A DNA stretch of 64,000 bases from Candidatus Berkelbacteria bacterium (lineage in GTDB: Bacteria > Patescibacteriota > UBA1384 > JACPKC01), in assembly GCA_016187225.1 (NCBI GenBank), contig JACPKC010000006.1, positions 25,051-89,050 on the forward strand, in the 5' to 3' direction. A program made the position numbers and the translations under genes. The notes under the pieces were generated by a model that saw nothing but the letters and a program-made list of their open reading frames with translations, had not been told where the DNA came from and did no database searches. The first letter of the stretch is position 1. Every line of letters begins with the position of its first letter. Below, one piece after another: positions 1 through 64,000 of this stretch.

Positions 1-2049
1 CTCGGCTTGCAACTTGATGTGATCAATTTTGTCAGCTCTTCTAGTCATTCTCTGTAGAGCGACTGCGCCATTTTTTCTGTTTACACTTCGTTTATGCTCG
101 TATGGAATGACCGACTTATTATAGGAAGAACTAAATTCTTCATAAACATGCCGTGATTTTCTATTCATTACACGTTCGTTTCGATAATGCTCAATGCCTG
201 CTTTTTCACTTTTCTCAAATTTTTGCAAATGAATCGTTTGACTTTTTGCCTCTTCTCGCGCCGTTTTTTTTCGGTGAGTGTGTCCCATGCTCGATGCTGA
301 AACACCGGAATTTTTTCTATACATGCTACGTTCGTGAGTTAGATGAATTACTGGTTCGAGTTGCTTTGTTTTCTGCGATTTCGGCCTTGGTTTTTGCAGA
401 TTTTCGGATATTAAAAATGGGAGATTGGGTTTAGGCAAATGGTAAGATTTTCTCACACTCGCTACACTCCCAGCAGAAGGGCGTTCTTTAGCCTTGGGTG
501 AATCAACTGATATTTTTTGTAAACATTCGTCGGTTGGAGTTTGACTGATGCTTATAGGGCAAACCCTAGTGAGTGGCATTTCAGTTTCAATGCTTTCGGC
601 TCGTCTTAAATGGCTTTCTTTTGTTTCTTCTTGTAACGGCCGATGGGGCGGACTGATGGCGGGGGCAGGTTGCTCTATGCATTGAACGTTCGTTGGTTGT
701 ATAATGAGTTCATCTCTAGAAACTAAACTATCTGTTTTACATTCGCAGATGCTCTTAATGACATATTCTGCATCTATGATTGGCTCAATCAAATCTATTT
801 TTGATGTAATTCTATCGCTAGCTATGTGATTCTTTAAACTCTTATGTTCTGTTTTAATATGGTCTGCCTGGATTTTTGTATCAACTTCGTTTGGTTCAAT
901 ATGTTCTATCCAATCAGTTTTTTCTCCTGGCTGCACATTTTCGGCTAGGTTTTTTAGCTCAAATTCAAATGAATCTTCTCGCTTAATTTCATTCTCACTC
1001 TCATTCTTTTCAGCATCCTCATCGGTATTCCCTGCTTTCCCATCTACGTACGTGCACACATTCAACGTTCGTTTAATTTGTGTTGGAGCAGGCATGTTGA
1101 GTGTTTCGTCCTCTATGCCGGAGGAGTTATCTAGGTCGGCTGGTTCTATTGGCAGAAGAATATCTAGTTCTTCGAGATTCGACTTCATCTCAACTCCAAG
1201 ACATTTGCCGACTTGAAGTATATTTGGGTCGCCCAGAGTGCGATAAATGTTTGTCATCAAAATGTTCACGTTCGGAATATGTGTAGCCCAAATGTGCTCT
1301 CCTCGCACAGAAAGCTCATTCACCAGAGTCGCATATAAACTAAATTGTTCAGGGTCGGCTAAGTCCCAATGCACAAGAGGCGAGCCGTCTTCATTGATGA
1401 GCTCAAAACCAGTTTCTGTGCGTAAAAGTGAAAAGTGAAAAAGCTGATGCTTCTCTTCTTGCTCAAGCGATTCTATTTTTTTTACGGGCCTGAATGGATC
1501 ATCTTGAGGGTCGATGTTCGTGACTTGATAGTCCGGTAAAGATGTTTCTGGCAGGATCGTCGCGCGGACAATATGAGTCTCTGGTTCAAGCTCAAAGTAC
1601 TGTTCTTGGCGAGTCTCTGGCGATTTTCTAAGCGCAGAGCCGAACTGGTTGAGTTCTGTGCACAATTTTTCAATTTCTTCAAATTCTTGCTCGCCGATAA
1701 GATCAAAGTCAAGTTCAACAAAACCATTGTCACGCAGTACCTGGGAGAGATTATCACTTTGCTCGAGAGGAATGAGGGGCATGAGTAGTTTGTGTGGAGA
1801 AATCTCTTTAGGACATTGCCAGAGGAGAAGAGAATGACTTTGATTCTCATTTTGCGACAAGTAATACCAAGTCTCTTTATTTGTTTGTGGATAAAATGCA
1901 AAAAAATCTTGCCCAATTCCTTCATGGCAAGATTCTTGTACTTGGCACTCGTCCTGATTTGGTTTGCAATCAACTAACTCAAGATTCTCATTGACTGGAT
2001 GATGCTGTTCAAGCTCGCGTGAAGATAGTTGTGCCTCAAGAGTTTCCAT
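1..2049 (-). CDS. Large acidic hypothetical protein, at least 683 aa, 5' partial at the window edge. The C-terminal region has degenerate basic repeats of the form xERxMNRKxxx.
   Basis: Manual reverse-complement translation from ATG at 2049-2047 (RBS GAGGAG 6 nt upstream) is open through all 683 codons to position 1. The ORF is absent from the track, probably because it has no stop inside the window. The track ORFs 153..434(+) and 1482..1973(-) are other frames or the antisense of this gene. The region is AT-rich relative to the core. Confidence 0.6.
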   Translation of the reverse strand, partial: METLEAQLSSRELEQHHPVNENLELVDCKPNQDECQVQESCHEGIGQDFFAFYPQTNKETWYYLSQNENQSHSLLLWQCPKEISPHKLLMPLIPLEQSDNLSQVLRDNGFVELDFDLIGEQEFEEIEKLCTELNQFGSALRKSPETRQEQYFELEPETHIVRATILPETSLPDYQVTNIDPQDDPFRPVKKIESLEQEEKHQLFHFSLLRTETGFELINEDGSPLVHWDLADPEQFSLYATLVNELSVRGEHIWATHIPNVNILMTNIYRTLGDPNILQVGKCLGVEMKSNLEELDILLPIEPADLDNSSGIEDETLNMPAPTQIKRTLNVCTYVDGKAGNTDEDAEKNESENEIKREDSFEFELKNLAENVQPGEKTDWIEHIEPNEVDTKIQADHIKTEHKSLKNHIASDRITSKIDLIEPIIDAEYVIKSICECKTDSLVSRDELIIQPTNVQCIEQPAPAISPPHRPLQEETKESHLRRAESIETEMPLTRVCPISISQTPTDECLQKISVDSPKAKERPSAGSVASVRKSYHLPKPNLPFLISENLQKPRPKSQKTKQLEPVIHLTHERSMYRKNSGVSASSMGHTHRKKTAREEAKSQTIHLQKFEKSEKAGIEHYRNERVMNRKSRHVYEEFSSSYNKSVIPYEHKRSVNRKNGAVALQRMTRRADKIDHIKLQAE

Positions 2050-2172
2050 ATTCTCCTCTGCAACGGAGGTGAGCACTGTAAATTTCTTAAGGCTGGTTGT
2101 CGGACTCCCACTCGAAGTGGATTACCGTTGCGGCACAGCGCCGGAATCTCACCGGACTTTCCCTAAAGATAT
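2050..2172 (-). promoter_or_regulatory. Cobalamin (B12) riboswitch, short class without the large P6 extension, plus its expression platform
   Basis: The minus-strand RNA reads AGGGAAAGUCCGGUGAGAUUCCGGCGCUGUGCCGCAACGGUAAUCC...GGGAGUCCGACAACCAGCC. This matches the conserved cobalamin-riboswitch core (AGGGAA, GGUGnnAnUCC, GCnG, CCGCAACGGUAA) and the 3' AGUCnGAnAACCnGCC element. A downstream CACCUCC can pair with the GAGGAG RBS of the ORF that starts at 2049. Confidence 0.75.
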
Positions 2173-2236
2173 GATAGTGACCTTAAGATTAAATTGTTAT
2201 TTTTATTCTAAACTAGATAGTCTTTAACGTGTCAAG

Positions 2237-2265
2237 AAAAGCCCCTTTTGAGGGGCTTTTCTTGA
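2237..2265 (-). terminator. Rho-independent terminator hairpin aaaagccccTTTTGAggggctttt, bidirectional
   Basis: A perfect GC-rich 9-bp stem is flanked by A-runs and T-runs. It lies directly after the 58-aa ORF and before the riboswitch promoter region. Confidence 0.7.
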
Positions 2266-2279
2266 GCTTGCACTATTTT

Positions 2280-2456
2280 TTACTGTGCTGGCGGAGTTCC
2301 TTGAGGCATCCCACCGCCCATGCCATCGTCTTCCTTAGTGCTTTCATCTGGCATCCCCGCTGGAGCCGGGGTATCAGATGGAGCCGATGGAGCGACTGGC
2401 GGCACGCCGCCTGGTTGATCATCACTTCCAGGCATATTTGGCATATCGTCGAACAT
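2280..2456 (-). CDS. Small 58-aa Pro/Gly/Met-rich acidic protein (MFDDMPNMPGSDDQPGGVPPVAPSAPSDTPAPAGMPDESTKEDDGMGGGMPQGTPPAQ)
   Basis: The ATG has a strong RBS (GGAGGTCGAT-ATG). The ORF is below the 60-aa cutoff of the track. It ends 15 nt before the terminator hairpin. Confidence 0.45.
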   Translation of the reverse strand: MFDDMPNMPGSDDQPGGVPPVAPSAPSDTPAPAGMPDESTKEDDGMGGGMPQGTPPAQ

Positions 2457-2542: not shown

Positions 2543-3070
2543 CTAGTATTCATAGACATAAAACGGTCCGTATTGGGTGGTGCGTTGGAACGTCTCACTT
2601 GGCTTGCGGTTTGGGAGCGGAAAACAATAGGCAATAACGCGCGCGCCATGCCTTAATTCTTGTTCGAATTTTTTTTCAAGGCGTTTCATAATGTGCGGTA
2701 AGAGATAGCAATAAACAGTCGAAGTTTTTTTAAGATTGGTTGTATATAAATTTGCGCATCGAAAAGTCAATCCAGGAATCCCGCGGTGCCGTAACCGAGC
2801 AAATAAAACCAGCGGCAGAGAAATATCGACGCCTTCGGCTAAACTAGAGCCGTGTTTGCAAACATAGGCACAGAGCATTCCTCGGCCGGAACCGAGTTCT
2901 GTAAAATGTTCGCCTGGAGATAGTTGCGCGAGCGCGAGTATCACATGAAAGAGTCCGGGAGGTGTGCTAACAAATTGCGCTCCGCCAGCCACTGATATCA
3001 GGCCGGACAATCCCAAAATCAATAAACCGAGTGCGACACTAAGAAAAATTGTGCTTATCACGAGTGTCAT
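2543..3070 (-). CDS. Small class I SAM-dependent methyltransferase-like protein with an N-terminal TM helix
   Basis: The sequence ELGSGRGM resembles the glycine-rich motif I of Rossmann-fold methyltransferases. The N-terminal 40 residues are hydrophobic. Confidence 0.5.
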   Translation of the reverse strand: MTLVISTIFLSVALGLLILGLSGLISVAGGAQFVSTPPGLFHVILALAQLSPGEHFTELGSGRGMLCAYVCKHGSSLAEGVDISLPLVLFARLRHRGIPGLTFRCANLYTTNLKKTSTVYCYLLPHIMKRLEKKFEQELRHGARVIAYCFPLPNRKPSETFQRTTQYGPFYVYEY

Positions 3071-3178: not shown

Positions 3179-4560
3179 GTGCGGGATTTTATGAAAGCAG
3201 AGCCATTTAACGTCAGAGTGATTGCAGAACAATCCACCTATAAAAAACCGCTTGGCATTTTGGCATGGCACCCAGATCGTCTCGCCCGCAATAGCGTTGA
3301 TGGTGGAAAAATAATTTACTTGGTGGACACCGGAGCCATTGCTTCTTTGCGCTTTCCGCAATTTTGGTTTGAGCCAACTCCGCAAGGGAAATTTATGTTG
3401 AACATCGCTTTTGGACAAAGCAAATACTATGTGGATTCTCTTTCCGAAAACACGAAAAGGGGTTTGCGCCAAAAGGTTCGCAGGGGCGAATATCCGAGCG
3501 TTGCGCCCATTGGCTACATAAACGATGTCCGCACAAAATCAATCGTGGTGGATAGAAAGAAAGCTCGGATTATTCGCCAAGCGTTTGAGCTATACGCAAA
3601 AAGTAATTCGCGACTGGAGGACATTTCGAACTTTTTGGCGCAACGCGGAATACTATCCCACGGCGGAAAGAGAATCCACAAGACGAGGGCGACTTTTATC
3701 CTTTCCAACCCGTTTTACACCGGATTATTCAAATATGGCGGTGAACTTCACGAAGGAAAGTACGAGCCAATAGTGGCAAAGAAACTTTTTGATCAAGTAC
3801 AAGAAGTGATGAAACGGAGAAGTCGTCCGCGCCACAAACAGAAAAATGAACCACAAGTATATTGCGGACTCCTTTCGTGCGCGTCATGCGGTATGCAAAT
3901 CACTGGCGAATACAGGGTGAAGACGCAGTTGAACGGCACACAACATTTCTATACTTACTGCCACTGCACCAAGAAATCTAAAACTCAAAAATGTCCTGAA
4001 CCCTGTATTCGCCAAGAATCGTTGGACGCGCAAATTTCATCACTTCTGCAAAAAGTTTCTTTGCCACAAGATTGGGCGAACTATCTAAACGGAAGACTTG
4101 AAAAAGACAAAACGGAATCCGCCCAATCTGTTTCTGCTTTTGTTGAAAAAAATCAAAAAATGATTACTGACATCACAGCGAAGCTCCAGCGACTTTTAGA
4201 CGGCTATTTAGAACAAGATATAGACAAGGAAGTATATCGTGCTGAAGAATCAAAATTGCTATCCGAGAAAAAGTCGCTGGAGGAGGAAATATCTCGTAAT
4301 CAACAAAAGCAGAAACATTGGCTCGAACCGATGGAAAAGTGGATAAAGGACGCGGGAAATATGGAAAAAATTGCATTGGATAGCAACCTTTTTGCTAAAA
4401 AGGTTGCTGCCAAAGAAATCTTTGACTCGCACCTCTTTCTTGGCGAAAAAACAGTCCGCCCCGCCGAAGGCGGGACTCCGAATTCGTTTGGAAAAATGGG
4501 GGGAAATCAGTGGGACGCGCTTCGCGCGTCCCACGCTCTTGGGTCTTCTGTATCTTTTTC
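3179..4560 (+). pseudogene. Large serine recombinase (resolvase/invertase family), N-terminally truncated remnant
   Basis: The ORF begins inside the catalytic domain (LAWHPDRLARN...GKFMLNIAFGQSKYYVDSLSENTKRGL...PIGYIND). There is no upstream sequence in any frame for the catalytic-Ser N-terminus. The recombinase domain, a Cys-rich zinc ribbon (CGLLSCASCG...CHC...C) and a coiled coil follow. The track ORF reads on through a terminator hairpin and the opposite-strand tRNA-Gly, which is an artifact. Confidence 0.6.
4509..4533 (-). terminator. Hairpin gtgggacgcgc-ttc-gcgcgtcccac, likely terminator of the atp operon/tRNA-Gly transcript
   Basis: A perfect 11-bp GC-rich stem sits downstream of tRNA-Gly on the minus strand. 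A U-rich tract (uuuuucc) follows on the minus strand after a short spacer. Confidence 0.45.
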
Positions 4561-4568
4561 TACAAAAC

Positions 4569-4642
4569 TGGAGCGAGTGAGGGGAATCGAACCCCCGTCT
4601 CAACCTTGGGAAGGTCGCATTCTGCCATTGAACCACACTCGC
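4569..4642 (-). tRNA. tRNA-Gly (anticodon CCC), CCA encoded
   Basis: Manual fold. The acceptor is GCGAGUG/CACUCGC and the anticodon stem is CGACC/GGUUG. The anticodon loop is UUCCCAA and the T-loop is UUCGAUU. The discriminator is U. Confidence 0.85.
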
Positions 4643-4666
4643 AGACGCCTTCCGTATTGTAAACGA

Positions 4667-7351
<2,685 letters not shown>

Positions 7352-8848
7352 TTATTTGCTTTAAGTCGGCTTCAATCTCGTCGAGTTTCGGATTTTCATC
7401 AAAACGCGTGCAAACAGCTGGAAACTTAGTGGCCAAATACTCTCTTAGCCCAGCTTCAAACTCACCCACTCTCTCGACAGACACGTCGTCCAGATAACCA
7501 TTATTCACAGCATAAAATGCGATTACTTGATCGGCGACTGTAAGCGGCTGATATTGAGGTTGTTTCAAAAGCTCGCTCACACGCCGACCGCGTTCTAACT
7601 GCTTGCGTGTTGCCTCATCGAGATCAGAGCCAAATTGAGCGAAACTTTCAAGCTCACGAAATTGGGCGAGATCAAGACGCACCTGCCCCGCCACTTTTTT
7701 CATTGCCTTGGTTTGAGCCGAGCCGCCAACGCGTGAAACCGAAAGGCCAACATTTAGAGCCGGTCGAACACCGCGATAAAAGAGATCGGTTTCTAGAAAA
7801 ATTTGGCCATCGGTAATGGAAATGACATTCGTTGGGATATAAGCCGAAACATCGCCAGCCTGTGTTTCAATAATCGGTAAAGCCGTTAGCGAGCCGCCGC
7901 CATGATCTTGATTGAGCCGCGCGGCGCGTTCGAGCAAGCGTGAATGCAGATAAAACACGTCGCCTGGATAAGCCTCGCGACCGGGCGGACGACGCAAGAG
8001 CAAGGACATTTCGCGGTAGGCCCAGGCGTGTTTAGAAAGATCATCATAGACTATCAAAGCGTCCTGACCATGATCGCGGAAGTACTCGCCCATCGCGCAA
8101 CCGGCATACGGCGCCAGATATTGCAGAGGCGCTGGATCAGACGCACCCGCGACCACAATAATTGTATGCTCAAGTGCGCCATACTCCTGCAAGATCGCAA
8201 CGATGCGAGCAATCTTTGATTCCTTCTGTCCAATTGCAACATAAATGCAGATAATGCCACTGTTTTTTTGATTGATAATAGCGTCAATCGCCACCGCGGT
8301 TTTGCCAGTACCACGATCACCGATAATCAATTCTCGCTGACCACGACCAATTGGAATCAAGCCATCAATTGCCTTCAGGCCAGTTTGCACCGGCTGATTA
8401 ACTGATTGGCGAGTGATGACACCTGGAGCAATTTTTTCCAAGAGTCCGGTTTCTTTGGTCTCAATCGGCCCCTTGCCATCCAAGGCTTCACCGAGCGGAT
8501 TCACAACCCGACCAACGAGTGTCTCGCCGACCGGGACTGACATTACCTGACCGGTTGAGCGCACCGTATCTCCTTCGGCGACTGCTCGCGCATCCCCTAG
8601 AATCACAGCGCCGACGTTAGTCTCCTCAAGGTTAAGCGCGATGCCAGTTATAGTTAGTCCACTTTGAGTTACAAACTCTAACATCTCCGAAGATTGGGCG
8701 CGCTCCAAGCCAGCAACCCGTGCAATACCATCGCCAACCTCAATCACTGTACCTTGCGCGGTTTGGTGCGCCTCTGGCTTGTAACCTTGTATCCGTCGAC
8801 GCAGATGGTCAATAATTGTAGCTGAATTTTGTTCTGGCATATTTCTCC

Positions 8849-50978: not shown

Positions 50979-51330
50979 ACCGACGCGGTTGAACGAGGTC
51001 GAAGACCCCGTTGCCGGGGTCCTCGGCGCCTCCCCACTCTTCATCGGGCGGCCATTCACGGCCGACCCAACGAAGAATTGGAGGCGCAAAGATTAGAATC
51101 ATAAGCAGTAAAAAACTGCTTATGATCTGTTCCAGCGTCAATCGCGTCACCTCCTTCGCTGGGTTCGATTTTGATCTTCGAAAAGATCAAGCCCAGCGAG
51201 CAGGTTCCCTCTAACCCACTCCGGATTCAGGAGAGGGCGGTACTTCTAATCAAAGAAACACTGCCCCAATCCGGAGTGGATGAGAGGGGAGGAGCTTGGG
51301 AGCTCCTCATTGACTTGCATTGGTCTATCT

Positions 51331-51454
51331 ACAATAATAGATACACCAATGCAGACACCCCGACCACCAGCAATATAATTGCGATAGCCAGGGCAAAGAT
51401 GAGAGTGCGAAATGACAATTGCTCGTCATACTCGACCCTCTTTTTCTTTTCCAT
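51331..51454 (-). CDS. 41-aa hydrophobic micropeptide (MEKKKRVEYDEQLSFRTLIFALAIAIILLVVGVSALVYLLL)
   Basis: Preceded by the conserved repeated leader ...ATCGCGAGAGGAGGTGAAAA-ATG with a perfect SD. The gene is below the track cutoff. Confidence 0.4.
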
Positions 51455-51607
51455 TTTTCACCTCCTCTCGCGATGATTAATTACGCGACGGGATTTCCTC
51501 GGGAGTGGCATCAGACTCTCCCGAGGTGAAGGAGTCGCATTAATAACCGTGAGAGAAGCCCGACCCCGTTCGACTCGCTCTGCGAGTTCGCTCGGGGTCG
51601 GAAAAAA

Positions 51608-52240
51608 TCACCATGGCCAGTATTTCGCCCGCTTCTGACTCTTCATCAGAAGCGGGCGACTGGGCGCCCAACCACACTCCTTACTGCCCATGGGGCATAG
51701 GGTGTAGTGGGCACCCGAGCCGCAGGCGCACTCGGCCGCCTGGGCCAGAGCCTCGAGAACTTCAGGTCGGTTTCTGAAGTTCCCGAGAACTTCAGGTCGG
51801 TCGAGTTGGCGAACCTCGACGGGTCCGCTGATCGCCTCGAAAAAAAATTCGAGGTAGACCGATTCCCGCTGGCTAAGCGGGTCAGTCACCCCCTCGTACT
51901 GAAGGGTCCAACCGGCCACGCCTTGCAAGGCAACGAGCCTCGCGCCGGAGGTCGAGGAGGTCCAGGCGAAGGACGTGACGTCCTCCTCCAGATACCCCCT
52001 CCAACCAGAGTGCTCCCCAGGCACTCGATGGGCGACGGGAGCGGTCGGAGGCATTACCTCCCGCCCGCCCAAAGAATTTTCCGCCATATAGACGAGCCCC
52101 TCGCGGGGTGCCGCCTCGGGTTCGCAGTCCTCCCCCCGTGGCATTTGGTTGGTTAGCCCGAAGGCCAACGAAACCAAATTTTCCCACGAGGTTTCCCCCG
52201 CGAAAATGTTTTGCTGGGTGGCGCTGGTGAGGGTCGTCAT
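51608..52240 (-). CDS. Hypothetical protein (210 aa) with an internal 19-bp tandem duplication
   Basis: An RBS GGGAGGG sits upstream of the ATG. The duplication ccgagaacttcaggtcggt x2 (51758-51810) encodes RPEVLGNFRNRPEVLE. Confidence 0.5.
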   Translation of the reverse strand: MTTLTSATQQNIFAGETSWENLVSLAFGLTNQMPRGEDCEPEAAPREGLVYMAENSLGGREVMPPTAPVAHRVPGEHSGWRGYLEEDVTSFAWTSSTSGARLVALQGVAGWTLQYEGVTDPLSQRESVYLEFFFEAISGPVEVRQLDRPEVLGNFRNRPEVLEALAQAAECACGSGAHYTLCPMGSKECGWAPSRPLLMKSQKRAKYWPW

Positions 52241-52482
52241 GTTGACGCCCTCCCTTCTTGCCCATTTTTCGATGGGCGGATCGTGGGTTTTTAACGTGTT
52301 TTACCACACGGATGACAAAGCTAACTCATCCCCATTGGGCATTAGTTAGCAGGGCATCACCCTGCTGCTATTTTAGGACCCGAGCACAGAGTCCTCGCTC
52401 TTCACTTCGATCCTCGTCGGATTGACGAAAAGCGAAGAAAGAGCCCTGCCTCACCGGTCGAAACCGACGAAGCAGGATGGGA

Positions 52483-52860
52483 TCAGTCGTCGGGCTGGCG
52501 ACGCGCGTCTGCCCCGAGTTCATCGAACTCGAGAACTAGACGTCTGACCCGTCGGAAACGAACAAACCGGTAGTACCGGCCGTTCACCTCCCAATCCGAT
52601 TCCTCCGGGTGCGCCACGATCTCGGCTTCCGACCAGAGTGGTCGAAGTCCCAGATCGACCATTCGGGCGAGAACAGAGAGCGGGACGACGGTAATCACAT
52701 CGTCATATCCACCCTCGCGGACTCGTCGCACGATCGTCTCGGCATTGTCGAACGGGCGCGAATCGCGCTCAACCCTCACATCCGCCCCAAACAACCGGCG
52801 CAAAGCGCCGAGCTGGACGGGATTCATCCCGTGCCGGCTGATCCAAAGGATTCGTTTCAT
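52483..52860 (-). CDS. Hypothetical protein (about 125 aa; start MKRILWISRHG...)
   Basis: An RBS GGAAAGGAGGGGG sits upstream of the internal ATG at 52860. The longer track ORF extends upstream without an RBS. Confidence 0.45.
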   Translation of the reverse strand: MKRILWISRHGMNPVQLGALRRLFGADVRVERDSRPFDNAETIVRRVREGGYDDVITVVPLSVLARMVDLGLRPLWSEAEIVAHPEESDWEVNGRYYRFVRFRRVRRLVLEFDELGADARRQPDD

Positions 52861-52877
52861 CGAATCCCCCTCCTTTC

Positions 52878-53066
52878 CTAGTTGATCCCGACGGTCTGCC
52901 CCGAGTATTGCGCGGCGATATACTGCGCATCCTCGAAATCGACCGGCTCGGACAAAATTTGGAACTCGCCCGGGTTTCGCGGGTCGGCAAACTCGGTCCA
53001 CAGCACCAGATAATTCCGGTCCGTGGTCGGCTGTCCTGACTCCAGCTCAACGATATGGATGGCCAT
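52878..53066 (-). CDS. Hypothetical 62-aa acidic protein
   Basis: It is preceded by the conserved repeated leader ...ATCGCGAGAGGAGGTGATCAC-ATG. Confidence 0.45.
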   Translation of the reverse strand: MAIHIVELESGQPTTDRNYLVLWTEFADPRNPGEFQILSEPVDFEDAQYIAAQYSGQTVGIN

Positions 53067-53195
53067 GTGATCACCTCCTCTCGCGATAATTGATTACGCA
53101 ACAACCCTTAAGTCGCGCGCTGATCGATAACCGTGAGAGAAGCCCGACCCCACAATCCACCGAAGCGAACGTGGGGTCGGGAAAAACAACTACTC
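53063..53195 (-). promoter_or_regulatory. Repeated intergenic module: terminator-like hairpin (cccgacccc...ggggtcggg), a conserved cttctctcacggttat box, and the leader gcgtaatNaatNatcgcgagaggaggtg-ATG. A second copy lies at 51455..51612.
   Basis: Two copies have the same order of conserved blocks and a variable spacer. Each directly precedes a minus-strand small gene. Confidence 0.6.
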
Positions 53196-53429
53196 GTCGA
53201 CCGGAAAGACGAAATACTGGAATACGCTGAAACTAGTTGCCGCGGCAACCGTTCGCGCATCCTCCAATGCTTCATCCACCGTATCGTGCGTGCGAGTCAG
53301 AAAACAAACGTGCCCGTCGTAGCGATAAAGTTTTGCGCCCAACCGCTCGTACTGAACAACATCGTCAACTGGCTCGCAGTAGTTGTTCTCGACAAAGCCA
53401 CCGCGGTATTTCATTTTTTTCTCCTCCAT
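53190..53429 (-). CDS. Hypothetical 79-aa protein
   Basis: An RBS GGAGGAGAAAAAAATG. It lies downstream of the 53564..54151 gene in the same orientation. Confidence 0.4.
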   Translation of the reverse strand: MEEKKMKYRGGFVENNYCEPVDDVVQYERLGAKLYRYDGHVCFLTRTHDTVDEALEDARTVAAATSFSVFQYFVFPVDE

Positions 53430-53563
53430 TCTTTTGATGGGGCAGTCGCTATCAGCGAGATGTCCATCAAAGTTCAGAGGCGCGGTGGCTTAAAAAACTG
53501 TTGGCCAGCCTTCCGAGCGGCTGGCAAAAAAAGTGAACCTCGCTCGGACGAGGGAGATGAGGG

Positions 53564-54151
53564 CTAGATTTGCGGCATGCGCCGCTCATCTAGCCACTCC
53601 CACTCGCTGGGGAGTGAGTCCCTCTCGGGGTAGGGGGTGGTATCGTCCCACCCCTGATTCTGCCACGCCGCCGTGTCGGCCCGCCGCTTGACGCGGCCGG
53701 TCATGAGGGCCTCGTCCTCCGGGGCCGAACCGGAGGATATCAGTCCCCCCTGGTAACCCCGCCACATCTGGTGGCGGAGATACTTGTCCCCCGCCAGGAT
53801 GGGTCCAAGCGAGGAATAGCACCAGGGATGCCGCGAGAGATACTCTCGCAGGAACCCCTCGAGTCCGACCTCGAACTCCAGGCGCCGAAGCGCCCGGCTC
53901 GCCGTCGCCCGCAGTTCGTGCGGGAGGGACTCCTCCTCCCCCACAAAGGGGAAGTAGGGTCCGTGTGCCGTATCTGGCACCTCCCCCAGGGCCCCAGACA
54001 ATTTGTAGTACGGGACCTGGTTGACCCGCACTCCCAGGATGGCCGGCGAGGCGATCCATCCTTGGTGCTTTCCGTCCACCTGGACGGAGTAGAGCCCGGC
54101 GACCTCGCCGGACTCTACCAGGGTCAGGGTGCTGTTCTGGGTGCTCTGCAT
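53564..54151 (-). CDS. Hypothetical 195-aa protein (MQSTQNSTLTLVESGE...) sharing a 5' module with the gene at 58185..58625
   Basis: The start is at the ATG inside the conserved roughly 135-bp promoter/leader repeat (RBS GGAGGTG). The first roughly 10 codons are homologous to the paralogous cassette. Confidence 0.5.
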   Translation of the reverse strand: MQSTQNSTLTLVESGEVAGLYSVQVDGKHQGWIASPAILGVRVNQVPYYKLSGALGEVPDTAHGPYFPFVGEEESLPHELRATASRALRRLEFEVGLEGFLREYLSRHPWCYSSLGPILAGDKYLRHQMWRGYQGGLISSGSAPEDEALMTGRVKRRADTAAWQNQGWDDTTPYPERDSLPSEWEWLDERRMPQI

Positions 54152-54266
54152 GGCAGGCACACCTCCATTCTTAAACTCCCGCTTGCGCGGGGCGATGGAA
54201 GGACTATAAATAGTCAGCCCGTCGCCCAACATAAACGAGTTATTTCCGCTCATCCTCGATTCCTCA
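54130..54266 (-). promoter_or_regulatory. Repeated promoter/leader module, about 135 bp, copy 1; copy 2 lies at 58614..58749
   Basis: The two copies are near-identical, for example gtgctctgcatggcaggcac...cccgcttgcgcggggcgatggaaggactataaatagtcagccc...cataaacgag...catcctcgattcctcatcggtttcga. The module contains a GCAA-tetraloop hairpin cccgc-gcaa-gcggg in the leader and the start codon of the downstream gene. Confidence 0.7.
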
Positions 54267-54408
54267 TCGGTTTCGATGAAAGTCCGAGGTAACTCAAAAA
54301 AAACTTTTGGCCAGCCGCGATGCGGCGGTGAAGCTTGATTAGCATCAAACCTCGCCGCCACAACCCGAGTTTGCAGAATCCCTGTTAATTTCCTATACTT
54401 GAGTTATT

Positions 54409-54648
54409 ATGCCTAATGTCTTCATTCCCAAAGAATATGAACGGACTCGCGAGCTCGTCGCCATCCCTAAAAAGAAGTATGAGGCTTATCTTGAGGCGCA
54501 ACGCGCTCAAGCACGACCAGCCAAACATGCCCAATCCAAACGAGATCAAGAGCTGACGGAGGTACTGGAAATTATCCGCAGAGGTAAAGCCGACTACCGC
54601 GCCGGTAGAATTCGGACTGTCCAATCGCTTTCGGAACTCATGGAGTAA
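54409..54648 (+). CDS. Type II antitoxin (RelB/ParD/Phd-like)
   Basis: A 79-aa protein immediately upstream of a RelE/ParE-like toxin gene, with a 5-nt gap. A sigma70-like promoter TTGCAG-17-TATACT lies upstream. Confidence 0.6.
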   Translation: MPNVFIPKEYERTRELVAIPKKKYEAYLEAQRAQARPAKHAQSKRDQELTEVLEIIRRGKADYRAGRIRTVQSLSELME

Positions 54649-54653
54649 ATCCA

Positions 54654-54926
54654 GTGCGTCGACCGATCGCAACTATCGATGTGACGCCAGATTTTGAAAA
54701 GGCTTTTCGTCGCCTGCCAGTTCGTATCCAGCGTTTGGCCACCAAGAAAACAAGTTGGTTTCGCGATAATGCACACGATTCCAGGCTAAAAACTCATAAG
54801 TTGAGCGGCCAACTCAACGAACACTGGTCGTTTTCCGTAAATCGCGAGTACCGGATTCTATTTGAGTTCACGAGTAATACCACCGCACTCTTCCACTCAA
54901 TTGGCACCCACGCCATCTATCGTTGA
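54654..54926 (+). CDS. Type II toxin, RelE/ParE superfamily
   Basis: A 90-aa protein with the motif HKLSGQLNEHWSFSVNREYRILFEF, characteristic of RelE/ParE-fold toxins. Confidence 0.65.
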   Translation: MRRPIATIDVTPDFEKAFRRLPVRIQRLATKKTSWFRDNAHDSRLKTHKLSGQLNEHWSFSVNREYRILFEFTSNTTALFHSIGTHAIYR

Positions 54927-55294
54927 AGTGCGTCTGCAACCCGTAAGACCGATCCGGATCAATCCCCAGGCGCCAAAACTCGATGTGAGTGGAGAGATGC
55001 TTCCATCGCTGGTCACAACTATTCGTTGCGTCAAGTAAAAAGATCCCTTCCTCCGATTTTAGGGGAAGAGAAGAAGCGGGGCGGGAGGCAAGCGTGCCTG
55101 CGACCGCCCCAAGCTTTGGCCGGGTTCCGATCGATTGATCGGAAGCGTTAAGACGGGAGCAATCCTTCGGGGTGTTCGCTCAACCGTCTTGCCGGCCTAC
55201 CCGCAAAAGTTGCGGGTAGGGTTGGATTCTCCGCCGTCGGCGGATTCTTACTCTCGCGCCACCAACCAAGGCGCGGGAGGGCAGTGTTTATGCT

Positions 55295-55510
55295 AGACCA
55301 GTCTCGCAAAGAGACAGTCGGCTTCATGCTCGACGTCCTCTCCCGAGTCTGATCTAGACTCATTTCCACAGCAGAGACACTGTCTGTACTCAAACAGTGT
55401 GCCTCCACTGGAGAAATTGTGCAGTTCGTTGTTTTTGATCCACTGCACAATTTCTCTTTTCAGCTCGGGATCACTTTCGATCGCCCGAGCAAGATTGGAG
55501 AAAAGCATTC
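55295..55510 (-). CDS. Small 71-aa Cys-containing protein (…YRQCLCCGNESR…)
   Basis: An RBS GGGAGGAGGGAGAAAGA-ATG. It contains a perfect 12-bp inverted repeat within the CDS. Confidence 0.35.
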
Positions 55511-56194
55511 TTTCTCCCTCCTCCCACCCTCGCGGGTAGGATGCCTGGTTGGCCGCGGGTGCGGGCCAGGGCGGGCAGATTCCCAATTCTTCCGTGATCG
55601 TGGGTTTCGACCACGCTCTGCCAGTCCGTGGAGGACTAGCATCCCGTTCTTTGAACGAGGAGCGTCCCCACGGAGCCTGGTGGCTCGGAAGAATTGGGTT
55701 TCCCCTTGTTCGTCCACTCACCAACTGCCAGCGGTGAGAGACAGGGCGGTTCGCCCCTCCAAGCGCGCGAAGACTAACTGGTCGAAGCGCGCGCTAGAGC
55801 CGAGTTTTGGTTACTTGCTTACTCGGGTGCAAGGTTGTCTTTATTCTCTGGGCGTTGCTGCCGGCAGACACATTTTTTTTTACGAGAGTGTCCACTCGTT
55901 CCAATTATTACTAATTGGATCGTTCCCTGCGCTGACCGGGCAAGGAGACCGGACTGATTTATGTTTTAGAAGCAACGCCAGTGAACGTTGCTCAACCGCG
56001 CGCGTGCCTTCATTAAAGAGGCCGCTTCTCACGGATAACTATGGTCACCCCTTAAAACCGCTCCGACAGTTTTAAGGGGATCTTTTACGCCACCCGACGT
56101 TGCCATTATGGTTTAGGCAACTCTCCCCGCCGACCTCAACGCTACAACGCGCTTAGGGCCAACGGTTGACGGGTGGGAGCCTGTCGTGGCACCC

Positions 56195-56602
56195 CTATGC
56201 GAGAAGGGGCAGAAGCACCTGCCGACGCTCCTGGTCAAATGTGTCCTTTAATAGACACCGTTTCGACCAGGCTTTAGATGGTTCAGCATTCAGGTACTGA
56301 ACCATCTGTCTGTACGCCATCTTGTCCGACGACGCACAGAACGCCCGTGCTCCCCCCTCGAGCTGACGGCCAACCTCCTCCTGGAGGTCCCAGATTGACG
56401 AAAGATTTTCCCATCCTTCGCCTCCAAGACTCTCGTCCAGGAAGAGCACGGCGTACTGGCGTTCAGCCAGCGCCTGCCGCGTCTCGGCCGCCGTCGTAGG
56501 AGCCACGACGTCCACGCCAACCGGCAGGACAGCAAGGAGCCGAGAGAGGAACATCTCTCGCCACTCCTCGCAGTCCTCGATCAGCAGGACGCTTTGGTTC
56601 AT
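56195..56602 (-). CDS. Standalone response-regulator receiver-like domain protein (degenerate)
   Basis: LLIEDCEE...VLFLDESL places acidic residues at CheY-like positions. The RBS is GGAGGTGAAAAG-ATG. A perfect 11-bp inverted repeat lies within the CDS. Confidence 0.45.
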   Translation of the reverse strand: MNQSVLLIEDCEEWREMFLSRLLAVLPVGVDVVAPTTAAETRQALAERQYAVLFLDESLGGEGWENLSSIWDLQEEVGRQLEGGARAFCASSDKMAYRQMVQYLNAEPSKAWSKRCLLKDTFDQERRQVLLPLLA

Positions 56603-56929
56603 CTTTTCACCTCCTTCGTTGGACTCAATTTTGATTTACCGATCAAATCCAACGAGGAAATGAATGCGCTCCTTAAGAACAAATCTGCTGCAAAAGTTCA
56701 ACCATGAATCAAACTCCAGTCACTATGGCTCTAATGACGTGCTCGCCCATCATCTTAACGACCTAACCCATTTCCGCACCGCGATCGCCCGCTGGCTGAC
56801 GAAACAAGTTGACTGATCAAGCCTTTCGAGACTTCGTTGACGATCTCCGATTCACGATTTTATAAGTTAATAAATCATGAACCCGAGTCGATCTCCCTCT
56901 ACCTGCTTGCACAGGCGAGGGAGAAAAAT

Positions 56930-57226
56930 CTACATCGCTGCCCGAACCCGGTCGGCAGCTAGTCGCTCTCTACGCCACCTCTCCTCGAGGTACTCGGCGT
57001 ACCAAGCGAGCAACTGCTCGGTGGTGCCGTCGAGAGCGGCGTTAACCGCCTCGAGCTGGGCGGCTTCTTTCTCCAGGTCGAGGCCGTCGAGCGGCTCAAG
57101 CTGGAGAAAGTACGCCGCTTCACGAATGGCGGCGTCCTTGGCGCGGCGCACCACGGCCGGAACCATGGCGTTCTTGGCCTCCGCCTCGGCGTACCGGCCC
57201 TCCCGGTTGTCGCGTTCGGTCGCCAT
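56930..57226 (-). CDS. Hypothetical 98-aa acidic/helical protein
   Basis: An RBS GGAAGGGAGG sits upstream of the ATG. Confidence 0.4.
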   Translation of the reverse strand: MATERDNREGRYAEAEAKNAMVPAVVRRAKDAAIREAAYFLQLEPLDGLDLEKEAAQLEAVNAALDGTTEQLLAWYAEYLEERWRRERLAADRVRAAM

Positions 57227-57301
57227 TTTGAGCGACCTCCCTTCCTTAATTGGTATTCAGGGAACCACCCTGCTGCTATTTTAGGACCCGAGCACAGAGT
57301 C

Positions 57302-57351
57302 CTCGCTCTTCACTTCGTCTTTCGATGAATCGAAAAGCGAAGAAAGAGCCC
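57302..57351. repeat. 50-bp repeat, left copy, flanking the vapBC cassette (ctcgctcttcacttcgtctttcgatgaatcgaaaagcgaagaaagagccc)
   Basis: It is identical 50/50 to the copy at 58098..58147. It forms an imperfect palindrome with bulges. A variant copy with a different 17-nt centre lies at 52398..52447. Copies 52358.. and 57266.. also share a 36-bp 5' extension. Confidence 0.8.
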
Positions 57352-57427
57352 GGCTCTCCGGTTGATTTGAAGATCATAGTTGGAATCAAGAGTGAAAGAT
57401 TGGTAAGATAATTGACGAAAGGAACTG

Positions 57428-57730
57428 ATGCCCAAAGTAATCAGTAAACCAAAAATCCGCGTTCCTGATGCGTACCAGGGTTATCAACGTTTGGTGGCGA
57501 TTTCGGAAACAGATTACCAGCGCCTGGTTGACAAGATGCGACCTGCCAAAACCGATCCGGCCGATCGCGCCACTGTCTGGAAAGCAGTGGAAGGCATCTG
57601 GGCTGACCGAGACGATCTTGATCCAATCCGTTATCAACGGCAATTACGGAACGAGTGGAATAAACGCGAAAAACGCCAGTATCGCTTGGGCGGGCGGGCA
57701 AAAAATTCGACGCACGCTAAGCGCTCATGA
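57428..57730 (+). CDS. vapB: VapB-like antitoxin
   Basis: A 100-aa protein that overlaps the downstream PIN toxin gene by 4 nt. Its GC is clearly lower than the surrounding island. Confidence 0.55.
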   Translation: MPKVISKPKIRVPDAYQGYQRLVAISETDYQRLVDKMRPAKTDPADRATVWKAVEGIWADRDDLDPIRYQRQLRNEWNKREKRQYRLGGRAKNSTHAKRS

Positions 57731-58092
57731 CGCTCGACACCAATATCATCATCACGCTTCTCAAAAACGAAGCGTCTTTGGTGAAATGGTTCCAGCAACT
57801 GCAGCGCGACCAGGTTATTTTCATATCCTCGATCACGCGAGCTGAACTTTTATCAGAATCAAAGTCAACCGCTAGGCAACTTGCTCGGATCGCACGATTT
57901 TTGAATTCCTTCCATTCTGTGCCACTAGATGACAAAATTGCCGATCATGTCGCAAGCTTGCGGCGCGCCTACTCTAAACTGCATGTTCCTGATGCCGCCG
58001 TGGCCGCCACTGCAATCATCATGGGCACGCCACTCGCCAGTCGCGACAAGGTATTTCGAAAGATTAAGGAACTCGATTTGATTGTGCCATAG
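57727..58092 (+). CDS. vapC: VapC PIN-domain toxin
   Basis: A PIN domain with a conserved acidic residue in MTLDTNIII near the N-terminus and conserved Asp/Glu further on, in a 121-aa protein. Confidence 0.7.
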   Translation: MTLDTNIIITLLKNEASLVKWFQQLQRDQVIFISSITRAELLSESKSTARQLARIARFLNSFHSVPLDDKIADHVASLRRAYSKLHVPDAAVAATAIIMGTPLASRDKVFRKIKELDLIVP

Positions 58093-58097
58093 GCTTT

Positions 58098-58147
58098 CTC
58101 GCTCTTCACTTCGTCTTTCGATGAATCGAAAAGCGAAGAAAGAGCCC
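58098..58147. repeat. 50-bp repeat, right copy, flanking the vapBC cassette
   Basis: See the left copy. It is an exact direct repeat. Confidence 0.8.
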
Positions 58148-58184
58148 CCCGCTCGAAATGTTTTGCGAGACGGGGGGACAACGT

Positions 58185-58625
58185 TTAGACAGGCGCCTCG
58201 AGCGGGCGCTGGACGAGGGCTTTGCGCACCTCGACCCCGACGACTTCGTAGCCGCCGAAGGCGAGGATGTCACGCCCTCGCTCATCCTGGCCGGTCACGA
58301 TCACCCGCCCGTCCTCGCCCCGCTTGAAGACCTGGCGCAGGACATGAATGCCCTGCTCGGCCAGCCCCTCGACGAGGGCGATCATGACCGGCTCGGGCCC
58401 GCCGGCCTCGACCGCCACCACCTCCCTCTCCTCGGTGGCCTCGATCATGTCGATGACCGCCTGGACGGCGGCCACCGGATCGGCGCCATAAGGCACGTCC
58501 TCGGTGACCACCTCGAGGTCGTCACCGAAGACGACCGCGAGGGCCGCTCGACGGTCCTCACTCAACGGGTGACGCATCACCCGCAGGATTACCGGGGTCA
58601 GGATGGTGTTTTCGGTGCTCTGCAT
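58185..58625 (-). CDS. Hypothetical 146-aa protein (MQSTENTILTPV...) carrying the shared 5' module
   Basis: It has the same promoter/leader/first codons as the gene at 53564..54151. Confidence 0.5.
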   Translation of the reverse strand: MQSTENTILTPVILRVMRHPLSEDRRAALAVVFGDDLEVVTEDVPYGADPVAAVQAVIDMIEATEEREVVAVEAGGPEPVMIALVEGLAEQGIHVLRQVFKRGEDGRVIVTGQDERGRDILAFGGYEVVGVEVRKALVQRPLEAPV

Positions 58626-58872
58626 GGCAGGCACCTCCTCTCATGAGCTCCCGCTTGCGCGGGGCGATGGAAGGACTATAAATAGTCAGCCCAGCGCCCA
58701 ACATAAACGAGTCAGTTCACACTCATCCTCGATTCCTCATCGGTTTCGACCCGTTCTAAACGAAGTCGAAGAATGAGAGCCCGAGGTGAGCCCCCGACCG
58801 CATTCAGCAATGGGTCAGGGTCAAGCAGTCCGGCGCAAGTAAGCTACCTGGCCGGACTGAAGTCATGAGGCG

Positions 58873-63108: not shown

Positions 63109-63147
63109 GGTAAATTTCCCTTTCGGGAAAGCCGTCTAGCCTTTCGG

Positions 63148-63879
63148 CTAGGCGGCCAACAGCTCCTCTCGGAGATCGGCCGCCGCCCAAGCGACTTGCG
63201 CTCGGGCGCGACCCTGCTCGAACGGCGACCTTGCAGCCAGCCGTTCGGCGAGGGCCGACTCAAGGGAGTCGGCGGCGTCATGCCACCGACTCACGCTCGA
63301 GTCCCGGGCGACCAGGAGCAGAAGCTCCGGTCGCCGGGAGGCGACCACGGTTTTGCGCCAGAGCCCCTGGCACACGGGGGCAGAAGCGGCCAACGCCTCA
63401 CGGCGAGCCGCTTCTGCCTTTTGTTGGCGCGCCCACTCGCCTTTGGGCAGGGCGCGGCAATTCTGCCGCTCCTGCTTGCGGGCGCGGCGAGCCTCCCGGG
63501 CGGCGCGGTCGCGGGCCACCTTGGCCAGCACCGCCGCCCGGGTCACCTGACCGCGGACAGGTTGGGCTTTCGCCCGTTCCTGCCGCCGGTTGGCCCGCCG
63601 GCGCGCCGTCCGCCACGACCGCCCCTCGCTGGGGACGGCATGGAAAGTTTTTCTGCCACAAAGTGGCTGCGGCACCCAGAGCTGGTCGCCCATCAGAGCG
63701 GCCAGCTCCCCGGCCGCGAGGCGAATGCCCCGCGACCGAAAAAACTTCTTCGCCCGGGTGCGAGAGACGAACTCTCGACGGCCCGGGCAGGTCATGACAC
63801 CATTTTCCCGGGTGATGCCAAACCCGGTGGCGAGCACGAAGCTCGCCAGGAAAACGAGAACCAGCCCAATAATGAGCAT
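63148..63879 (-). CDS. Hypothetical membrane-anchored Arg-rich protein (243 aa)
   Basis: An RBS GGAAGGAGGAAAACGAG-ATG. It has an N-terminal TM helix and a highly basic (R/A/E-rich) remainder. Confidence 0.45.
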   Translation of the reverse strand: MLIIGLVLVFLASFVLATGFGITRENGVMTCPGRREFVSRTRAKKFFRSRGIRLAAGELAALMGDQLWVPQPLCGRKTFHAVPSEGRSWRTARRRANRRQERAKAQPVRGQVTRAAVLAKVARDRAAREARRARKQERQNCRALPKGEWARQQKAEAARREALAASAPVCQGLWRKTVVASRRPELLLLVARDSSVSRWHDAADSLESALAERLAARSPFEQGRARAQVAWAAADLREELLAA

Positions 63880-64000
63880 CTCGTTTTCCTCCTTCCCCCG
63901 CTTTGCGGGTTTTTCAACCGCACGGGGGATTCACCGGCTGGCGAATGCCCACCCCGAACAGCGACGCCTTTCACGTCTCCCTCTGCGCCACATTTTTCCT

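Follow-up and report, generated by a model that had tools for sequence, protein, structure and literature searches.

We analyzed a 64,000-nt stretch of DNA (hereafter the window) from a Candidatus Berkelbacteria bacterium (GTDB lineage Bacteria; Patescibacteriota; UBA1384; JACPKC01; GenBank assembly GCA_016187225.1, contig JACPKC010000006.1, positions 25,051 to 89,050 of the forward strand), with a focus on a large open reading frame (ORF) that runs off its first position on the minus strand. This frame, which we call the big ORF (protein P0001), is a genuine large protein-coding gene and, most likely, the first cistron of a two-gene operon. A predicted compact cobalamin (vitamin B12) riboswitch stands before it, and a gene for a short Clp/Hsp100-type AAA+ ATPase follows it beyond the window edge. 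The features of the locus are as follows, in 5' to 3' order along the minus strand.

2237..2260, minus strand: terminator-like hairpin, GCCCCU...AGGGGC and a U run, closing a 58-aa ORF; the same stem is called on the plus strand
2205..2235, minus strand: putative promoter, TTGACA - 19 nt - TAGAAT, read from the sequence and the leader alignment
2074-2200, minus strand: compact cobalamin-clan aptamer with the P6 extension cut to 6 nt (Rfam RF00174, invariant core)
2181..2187, minus strand: 5' strand of P1, CTTAAGG, pairing with 2086-2092
2086..2092, minus strand: 3' strand of P1, CCTTAAG
2053..2068, minus strand: platform hairpin, CUCC-GUUGCAGA-GGAG, with the ribosome-binding site as its 3' arm (sequence, predicted fold and leader conservation)
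1..2049, minus strand: big ORF (P0001), codons 1-683 of 791, the 5' 86% of the gene (translation and L001:1260-3635)
L001:3644-5287, same strand as the big ORF and probably in operon with it, outside the window: 547-aa Clp/Hsp100-type AAA+ ATPase, beginning 8 nt past the big-ORF stop

The big ORF and its riboswitch leader

An earlier, sequence-only reading of this DNA had pointed to a stop-free minus-strand frame of at least 683 codons running off the window edge. Re-inspection by reverse-complement translation of 2049..1 confirmed it, with 683 sense codons from the ATG at 2049-2047 to window position 1 and zero stops. The final 108 codons and the stop lie past position 1. They were supplied by the Logan contig L001, an independent assembly that shares 3308 nt with the window at 0 mismatches, so that the contig and P0001 together complete the ORF to 791 aa. 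NCBI already holds the identical 791-aa protein, on a 161-kb contig, as 'hypothetical protein HYW32_01350 [Candidatus Berkelbacteria bacterium]'. The gene was missing from the mechanical ORF list because that list omits ORFs running off the source; the two short ORFs reported across the same region, 153..434 (+) and 1482..1973 (-), do exist in the list, the latter in a different frame. The start is marked by a ribosome-binding site, GGAG, 3 nt 5' of the ATG, and the N-terminus METLEAQL resembles the MITLEQEL of one orthologue, which favors ATG 2049 over an upstream GTG that would give an 800-aa product.

The predicted aptamer lies 24 nt 5' of the ATG and scores just above the Rfam RF00174 gathering score (31.9 versus 31.5 bits). 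Its alignment shows the core GGGAA..GGUG..A.UCC..GCUG..CCGCAAC.GUAA, the B12-box AGUC.GA..CCAGCC and a 7-bp P1. The P6 extension of the class I, AdoCbl (adenosylcobalamin)-selective types, an insertion of ~60 nt in the model, is here reduced to 6 nt, and on this alignment we classify the aptamer as a compact cobalamin riboswitch variant. Relatives' leaders match the compact AdoCbl-II/AdoCbl models. A 27-nt core is invariant in seven of seven aligned leaders (L087 and L088 among them), and by hand count all seven P1 pairs are kept in each of the seven through seven different sequences. With sensitive filters the orthologous leaders scored 50.0 (L089), 50.9 (L090), 42.5 (L091) and 42.8 bits (L085), with lower values for L083 (30.8) and L087 (25.1, partial); leaders above the cutoff had 50.0, 50.9, 42.5, 45.5, 40.4 and 38.2 bits with RF00174 and 52.7 and 40.1 bits with RF01689. 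The P1 pairing and the higher-scoring homologous leaders bear out the claim of a genuine B12 riboswitch directly upstream of the big ORF. A minimum-free-energy fold of the window leader did not reproduce the aptamer (z-score -0.24), a result that is usual for riboswitches and uninformative, and RNAalifold on a MAFFT alignment of the leaders recovered part of the structure.

Upstream of the aptamer, a TTGAC box occurs at the matching place in L085, L087, L088, L089 and L091. The TTGACA/TAGAAT pair of the window went unreported by a consensus promoter scan because its 19-nt spacer is too long. The terminator-like hairpin at 2237..2260 is predicted to insulate the riboswitch unit from the 58-aa ORF upstream.

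Downstream of the aptamer, the loop of the platform hairpin (H1) holds a GCAG found without change in all the aligned module leaders. Relatives have, after H1, a strong second hairpin (H2) over the ribosome-binding site, with a U-run behind H2 in several. When window positions 2047-2073 were compared with L085:5490-5540, L087 and L091, the ~45-nt H2 was absent and the start codon came right after H1. The window leader thus appears to have lost the H2 segment, and platform architecture varies within one gene family. In the relatives the two hairpins show mutually exclusive complementarity, in that stretches of H1 could pair with the first half of H2, namely UUCCCGAG and CUCGGGAA for L149 and L163 and GCAGAAGG and CCUUCU(CU)GC for the Berkelbacteria group.

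A conserved module with a short Clp ATPase

The sequence-only reading had taken the big ORF for the only evident target of the riboswitch. The big ORF is indeed directly downstream, but the ATPase gene begins 8 nt past its stop, and from this arrangement the ATPase is most likely co-regulated by the riboswitch. The ATPase carries AAA_2 (PF07724, 3.3e-62) and ClpB_D2-small (PF10431, 7.3e-21) domains, and its best PDB match is ClpB D2 (341 bits). The D2 ring, ~50% identical to that of ClpB, has canonical Walker A and B motifs, a GYVG pore loop and sensor motifs (sensor-2 GARP). The alignment of the whole protein with ClpA covers ClpA 191-733, hence D1 and D2 but not the N-domain, and the Clp N-terminal domain (PF02861) gave no match. 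The M-domain is absent as well, since in a protein of 547 aa, whose residues 196-545 align to ClpB 495-844, there is no room for it. By alignment inspection only, there is no insertion for a ClpP-docking loop ([ILV]-G-[FL]), and the stretch from SN[IL]G to FRPEFLNRFD has a ClpB-like length. D1, by contrast with D2, is a short and degenerate module. The six Berkelbacteria-type orthologues that were aligned have arginine in place of the Walker A lysine of D1 and no longer have its Walker B. The copy in the window genome retains the GK and DE of D1. In the distant ATPases of L129, L146, L163 and L164, D1 has a canonical GKT/S.

About twenty full-length relatives of the ATPase were found (494-547 aa, 46-53% identity), at least one of them labelled Berkelbacteria. 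NCBIfam equivalog scores were all far under the cutoff (397.7 versus 1232), a scan of species-representative genomes returned generic ClpB/ClpC D2 matches only, and the D1 half used alone as query returned nothing, its own protein included. The partner thus resembles ClpB, Hsp104 and Skd3 (CLPB) in its D2, its ClpB_D2-small domain and the lack of a ClpP-docking loop, and Skd3 in effectively relying on a single active ClpB-type ring. It differs from ClpB in having neither the N-domain nor the coiled-coil M-domain, in its short D1 and in its length (547 versus ~860 aa). To judge from these motifs, it is a minimal unfoldase, probably independent of ClpP, without the usual adaptor-binding domain.

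We found big-ORF homologues and positional counterparts next to B12 riboswitches in other genomes, upstream of short Clp genes, at 16 loci: 10 reached via the AAA+ protein alone and six more via a scan with the aptamer core. All 10 ATPase-reached loci have a large Pfam-less ORF directly upstream of the ATPase, with a B12 aptamer core in front of it and a 4-nt overlap with the ATPase or a gap of at most 99 nt. Across the module loci the big ORF encodes 616-1091 aa and is acidic and Pfam-less; in L083/84, L085/86, L087, L088, L089, L090, L091 and the P0006 contig it has at least 754 and up to 1091 aa. These contigs share a downstream flank with a convergent trxB-like gene and, usually, a P-type ATPase and/or a 5-FTHF (5-formyltetrahydrofolate) cyclo-ligase. 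Three related loci also have, as in the window, a 175/176-aa methyltransferase-like gene upstream of the module. The module therefore occupies the same chromosomal position in Berkelbacteria-type genomes, and a diverged form occurs in other lineages of the ultra-small bacteria of the Candidate Phyla Radiation (CPR), one of them labelled Falkowbacteria. The big ORF of the window fits the family in lying between a B12 riboswitch and a short Clp ATPase and in its acidic-then-basic layout.

Two of the diverged loci were chosen via the ATPase only. L163, whose protein is labelled Falkowbacteria, has an AdoCbl-II aptamer (52.7 bits), a 616-aa Pfam-less ORF and the ATPase; in L164 an AdoCbl aptamer (45.7 bits) is followed by a 699-aa ORF that overlaps the ATPase by 4 nt. 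The module of L163 has a context unlike that of the Berkelbacteria-type loci, being flanked (L163:1-2153 and 7371-8657) by TrbL-like and TrwB-like genes of conjugation or type IV secretion and by an ORF of >2400 aa. The metagenome scan with the invariant aptamer core gave 71 loci, most of them before ordinary B12 genes, including transcobalamin-like alpha-toroid and DUF4430 proteins and one NIR_SIR protein; six loci (L113, L116, L129, L146, L149 and L160) hold the whole module, with riboswitches of 30-45.5 bits. Separately, L097, L105 and L111 have the same aptamer core before prenyltransferase/squalene-cyclase-like alpha-alpha toroid and DUF4430 proteins, which by analogy with the transcobalamin/intrinsic-factor architecture are likely bacterial corrinoid-binding proteins.

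Global searches with the big-ORF protein were nearly empty. A word-indexed search of 5.8 billion proteins with the full window protein returned itself alone, and exhaustive phmmer against 1.84 billion representatives returned itself and P0002 only. We rejected P0002 as a homologue: The match is spurious, with one 55-aa stretch matching seven near-identical cadherin-like repeats. P0001 matched zero Pfam or NCBIfam families at E <= 1, PHROGs and PADLOC gave no match to the big ORF, a family profile found nothing in the PDB at E <= 10, and no weak Pfam match recurred among seven family members.

Similarity emerged between positional orthologues. BLASTP aligned the window protein with those of L085 (L085u, 2.6e-6) and L087 (L087u, 2.4e-5) over residues ~181-333. 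A profile built from six positional orthologues, with the window protein excluded, scored 42.8 bits on the window protein, compared with a maximum of 4.9 bits in 1000 composition-preserving local shuffles, and its matches form two collinear blocks (residues 122-416 and 579-771). The Berkelbacteria subgroup of the family comprises the big ORFs of L083, L085, L087, L088, L089, L091 and L113; the L090 big ORF crosses a 100-N scaffold gap and was left out of scoring. Among the motifs that the members share are (H/F)G.A, LQLVRTETGFE and YR.LGDP..L..G, and the C-terminal domain adds T(A).SVI and IRPL. Five further loci (L129, L146/L160, L149, L163 and L164) have big ORFs that are positional equivalents, either diverged beyond recognition or replaced. 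On this sequence evidence, the family of the big ORF evolves very fast and is confined, so far as the matches go, to CPR bacteria, and its members carry no known domain. Apparent orphans in CPR genomes can thus be positional orthologues that evolve too quickly for homology search.

What the family does keep is a charge layout, which in the window maps as follows together with the best-conserved block and a basic motif.

670..2049, minus strand: acidic N-terminal part, residues 1-460, net charge about -55 (isoelectric point, pI, ~4.4)
1165..1686, minus strand: best-conserved family block, residues ~122-295, with the motifs FGSA, LLRTETGFE and YRTLGDPNILQVG (BLASTP, profile domain 1 and alignments)
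1..669, minus strand: basic low-complexity segment, assigned by pI, residues 461-683 in the window and on to ~690
310..342, minus strand: basic 11-aa motif, copy 1, LTHERSMYRKN, residues 570-580
154..186, minus strand: basic 11-aa motif, copy 2, YRNERVMNRKS, residues 622-632
70..102, minus strand: basic 11-aa motif, copy 3, YEHKRSVNRKN, residues 650-660

The product had been described as acidic, which holds for the whole protein (pI 5.19) and for residues 1-460, but residues 461-690 are basic (pI 9.5-10.2), and residues 691-791 are near neutral and more hydrophobic. The order acidic, basic, neutral is kept in seven family members, with an acidic N-terminal part of ~450-600 aa, a basic part of ~150-250 aa and a C-terminal domain of ~100 aa. 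The basic repeats noticed earlier are real, as none of 500 segment shuffles attained the observed triple score. Their placement at the C-terminus did not stand: They are internal, because 108 further residues lie beyond the window, and the motif, found in none of 13 related big ORFs, is private to the window genome.

The C-termini themselves show a bias toward -AA, which closes six of the 14 big ORFs compared with three of 115 background long ORFs of the same loci (~16-fold; P ~ 8e-7, or 1.3e-5 after a homologous pair was collapsed), with the tails RLGTAA, LSLAA, IRLAA, EKMAA, FELAA and EQIAA, and eight of the 14 end in A. Since the -AA tails occur in ORFs without mutual similarity, we argue for a common constraint. 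The ssrA tag is a C-terminal degron engaged by ClpX and ClpA, and the small non-polar ends of these six proteins (LAA, MAA, IAA, TAA) are of the kind that Clp unfoldases engage.

Proposed function and rival readings

We favor the reading, with a probability of roughly 0.6, that the locus is an operon repressed by B12, from which a fast-evolving client or adaptor is made along with an unfoldase dedicated to it. The sequences establish the gene, its family, the riboswitch, the conservation of the module and the layout of the ATPase; from them we infer the OFF direction of the switch, the co-transcription of the two genes and the physical partnership of their products. In physiology the operon may serve a B12-starvation response or a host-dependence signal. 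The operon would run from the promoter through the compact riboswitch and the big ORF to the 547-aa ATPase 8 nt further on. With corrinoid plentiful, the aptamer would bind it and stabilize the platform hairpin whose arm is the GGAG ribosome-binding site, turning translation off; with corrinoid scarce, both proteins would be produced. By analogy with compact cobalamin riboswitches, H1 would be locked by an L5-L13-type loop-loop contact through the invariant GCAG. In the relatives, a ligand-locked H1 would let H2 form and cover the ribosome-binding site, and in the window H1 itself would sequester it. An OFF switch is the simplest reading of the H1/H2 complementarity under this kissing-loop logic. 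The big protein would then most likely serve the unfoldase encoded next to it as its own client or adaptor. That unfoldase has an active ClpB-like D2 ring but lacks the N-domain to which ordinary adaptors bind, the M-domain that contacts DnaK and the loop that docks ClpP.

Parts of this arrangement are familiar. As in known cobalamin-riboswitch operons (btuB, metE, nrdDG, cob/cbi and btuFCD; CL00101), an aptamer with the core and P1 stands on the same strand directly before the first cistron, with a platform that hides the ribosome-binding site. A hairpin loop complementary to the aptamer L5 region recalls the L5-L13 kissing loops of compact (class II-like) cobalamin riboswitches. Unlike in those operons, the cargo here is a domain-less hypervariable acidic protein and a Clp/Hsp100 unfoldase, and includes no B12 transporter, biosynthesis gene or B12-independent isozyme. 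Likewise, as in clpS-clpA, mcsA-mcsB-clpC and mecA/ClpC, a partner gene lies directly upstream of a Clp ATPase (with co-transcription inferred here), and the tight or overlapping stop and start suggest coupled synthesis. The differences from these adaptor-unfoldase pairs are that the big ORF exceeds those partners 6-10 times in size, that most of it is low-complexity and that the ATPase has no adaptor-binding N-domain. In hhalign comparisons, the big-ORF family reached a probability of < 1% with ClpS, MecA, McsB and Clp N/M domains and of < 2% with Clp N-domains and full-length Clp proteins.

CPR bacteria cannot make B12 and depend on hosts. Riboswitch targets are almost always tied to the ligand, which is why riboswitches are reliable guides to the function of unfamiliar genes. 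If the link here is functional, it would be a novel piece of corrinoid biology in presumed host-scavenging organisms, and the ligand, the RNA and the two proteins would offer a rare experimental handle on CPR 'dark matter' genes. A wider and more tentative proposal, which we regard as doubtful, is that CPR bacteria use the corrinoid level to switch a headless Clp unfoldase and a hypervariable, largely unstructured client or adaptor. If true, this would be a lineage-wide, previously unrecognized B12-responsive system, and none of the known riboswitch regulons would match it. Such a system might bring about a state of starvation or detachment, or might free corrinoids from proteins by unfolding them. 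The riboswitch class, the Clp ATPases and the annotated hypothetical protein are known already. We found no report in the literature tying B12 riboswitches to CPR, Berkelbacteria or Clp genes, and the conserved association, across CPR lineages, of a B12 riboswitch with a minimal Clp unfoldase and a hypervariable protein of no known domain seems to be unreported in the searchable literature.

Several points weigh against a B12-repressed client and unfoldase. Neither protein has a known biochemical tie to corrinoids, and the ATPase gene might be transcribed from a promoter of its own or encode a housekeeping chaperone that only happens to share the operon. The window protein ends ...VSFELD, without an ssrA-like -AA tail, and the tmRNA (transfer-messenger RNA) tags of the lineage end ...FAPAFA and not LAA; together these leave the degron reading only generic. 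Neither the profile nor hhalign (probability < 2%) detected similarity between the Berkelbacteria family and the big ORFs of L129, L146/L160 and L149, and the equivalence of these and the L163 and L164 ORFs draws on position, composition and tail. The low AlphaFold2 confidence (predicted local distance difference test 31.8 over the whole chain, 44.5 over residues 120-300) came from single-sequence runs and is no proof of disorder. Finally, the Rfam score of the window's own aptamer is marginal, although P1 covariation and the homologous leaders offset this and argue that the riboswitch is real.

Rival accounts in terms of corrinoid acquisition, an incidental operon, defense or foreign origin are less well supported. 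In the first, which we consider unlikely but worth some credence, the big protein would bind, store or scavenge B12 in the cytoplasm or at the surface under riboswitch repression, as btuB, btuG or transcobalamin-like proteins are repressed, and the ATPase would help to insert the cofactor or to remove it, perhaps through the unfolding of corrinoid proteins. The cobalamin-riboswitch targets known so far are indeed mostly B12 transport or biosynthesis genes or B12-independent isozymes, and the scan placed the same aptamer core before transcobalamin-like toroid, DUF4430 and NIR_SIR proteins elsewhere. Against this, none of the 14 big ORFs has a signal peptide or membrane segment (maximum KD19 <= 1.27), no histidine or cysteine is found among the fully or nearly invariant family columns, and the extreme divergence is atypical of a cofactor-binding fold. 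The absence of Pfam, NCBIfam and PDB matches, family profile included, also speaks against it; known B12-binding domains (PF02310, DUF4430/transcobalamin-like and BtuF) gave no profile match with P0001.

The contrast between an ATPase conserved at 46-53% identity and a big ORF diverged past recognition could instead mean that the riboswitch controls the Clp-type chaperone, in a B12-linked stress or proteostasis response, with the big ORF an unrelated passenger. We give this a small chance, for the big ORF is long and intact (616-1091 codons) at every examined locus, often overlaps the ATPase start by 4 nt, and conserves its charge layout and C-terminal features; reduced CPR genomes would have shed a dispensable passenger.

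The pairing of a fast-evolving, uncharacterized protein with a ClpB-like AAA+ ATPase also recalls Dodola (DolA and DolB), a two-gene anti-phage defense system, and the ATPase matches the PADLOC models DolB (6.7e-32) and PDC-M37B (3.8e-40) over AAA_2. These matches are generic to AAA_2 and far weaker than that to ClpB (1.3e-118), and neither DolA nor any other PADLOC model matches a big ORF (P0001, L149 and L163). The module is core-genomic and syntenic, and B12-riboswitch control is without precedent in defense systems, which makes a Dodola-type system very improbable.

The big ORF was also suspected of foreign origin because of its AT-richness. The composition is as claimed (GC 0.413 for 1-2049 versus 0.479 for 2050-50000), and cargo of a mobile element might be read from the serine recombinase ORF at 3179-4702, which overlaps tRNA-Gly 2.5 kb away as a possible island marker, and from the lack of homologues in global searches. 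The step to a foreign gene does not follow, however. In six of seven Berkelbacteria-type loci, in genomes from 45% to 58% GC, the big ORF is at or near the GC minimum of its neighborhood while tracking the GC of the host genome, and we therefore take the AT-richness to be intrinsic to the gene. Position and flanks (the 175-aa gene, trxB, the P-type ATPase and the 5-FTHF cyclo-ligase) are conserved across these loci, and the big ORF has no PHROG or PADLOC match. Horizontal acquisition is thus not supported by the sequences compared, and foreign origin, already largely refuted, keeps a very slight chance.

A spurious ORF, open by chance in a non-coding or misassembled low-complexity region, has virtually no chance of being the answer: the L090 equivalent was overlooked by the gene caller and AlphaFold confidence is low, but 791 codons run without a stop at 41% GC behind a ribosome-binding site and riboswitch and without significant tandem DNA repeats, and the identical independent assembly and the collinear orthologues with conserved blocks refute it.

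Surroundings of the locus

Between the riboswitch and the ATP synthase operon, the serine recombinase ORF at 3179-4702 (+) is CcrB/XisF-like, with a Resolvase match that lacks the N-terminal catalytic part, and on the opposite strand it overlaps tRNA-Gly(ccc) at 4569-4642 (-). It may be the remnant of an integrase at a tRNA site. A tmRNA gene recurs 2-3 kb upstream of the module in L085, L087, L088, L091 and L113; in four of these loci the tag called by ARAGORN ends ...F(A/S)PAFA, and in L085 ARAGORN called no tmRNA. The window has no tmRNA, and therefore the neighborhood of its module has been rearranged, possibly via an insertion bearing the recombinase.

Upstream of the riboswitch, 2543-3070 (-) encodes a protein of 175 aa that is hydrophobic over a segment near its N-terminus and gives a weak signal for a class-I methyltransferase (protein-lysine methyltransferase-like, 30 bits). 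The same gene is just upstream of the riboswitch in L087, L089 and L091, with a terminator between. In the window, the 175-aa gene is separated from the riboswitch promoter by the 58-aa ORF at 2280-2456 (-), which is rich in proline, glycine and aspartate (MFDDMPNMPGSDDQPGG...), has an RBS-like GGAGG and a strong terminator, and matches no family.

At the far end of the window (51000-64000), GC rises from ~0.48-0.50 to 0.55-0.67 and all ORFs but one are Pfam-less; a 1411-aa ORF at 58873-63108 (-) has a weak DEAD-helicase match only. It is here, and not at 1-2049, that the composition of the window looks foreign, and the region could be an island or a chimeric join. Within it, ARAGORN called a tRNA-Ser(aga) at 53708-53803 (-), which is below the Rfam tRNA gathering threshold for reporting and overlaps a 265-aa mechanical ORF.

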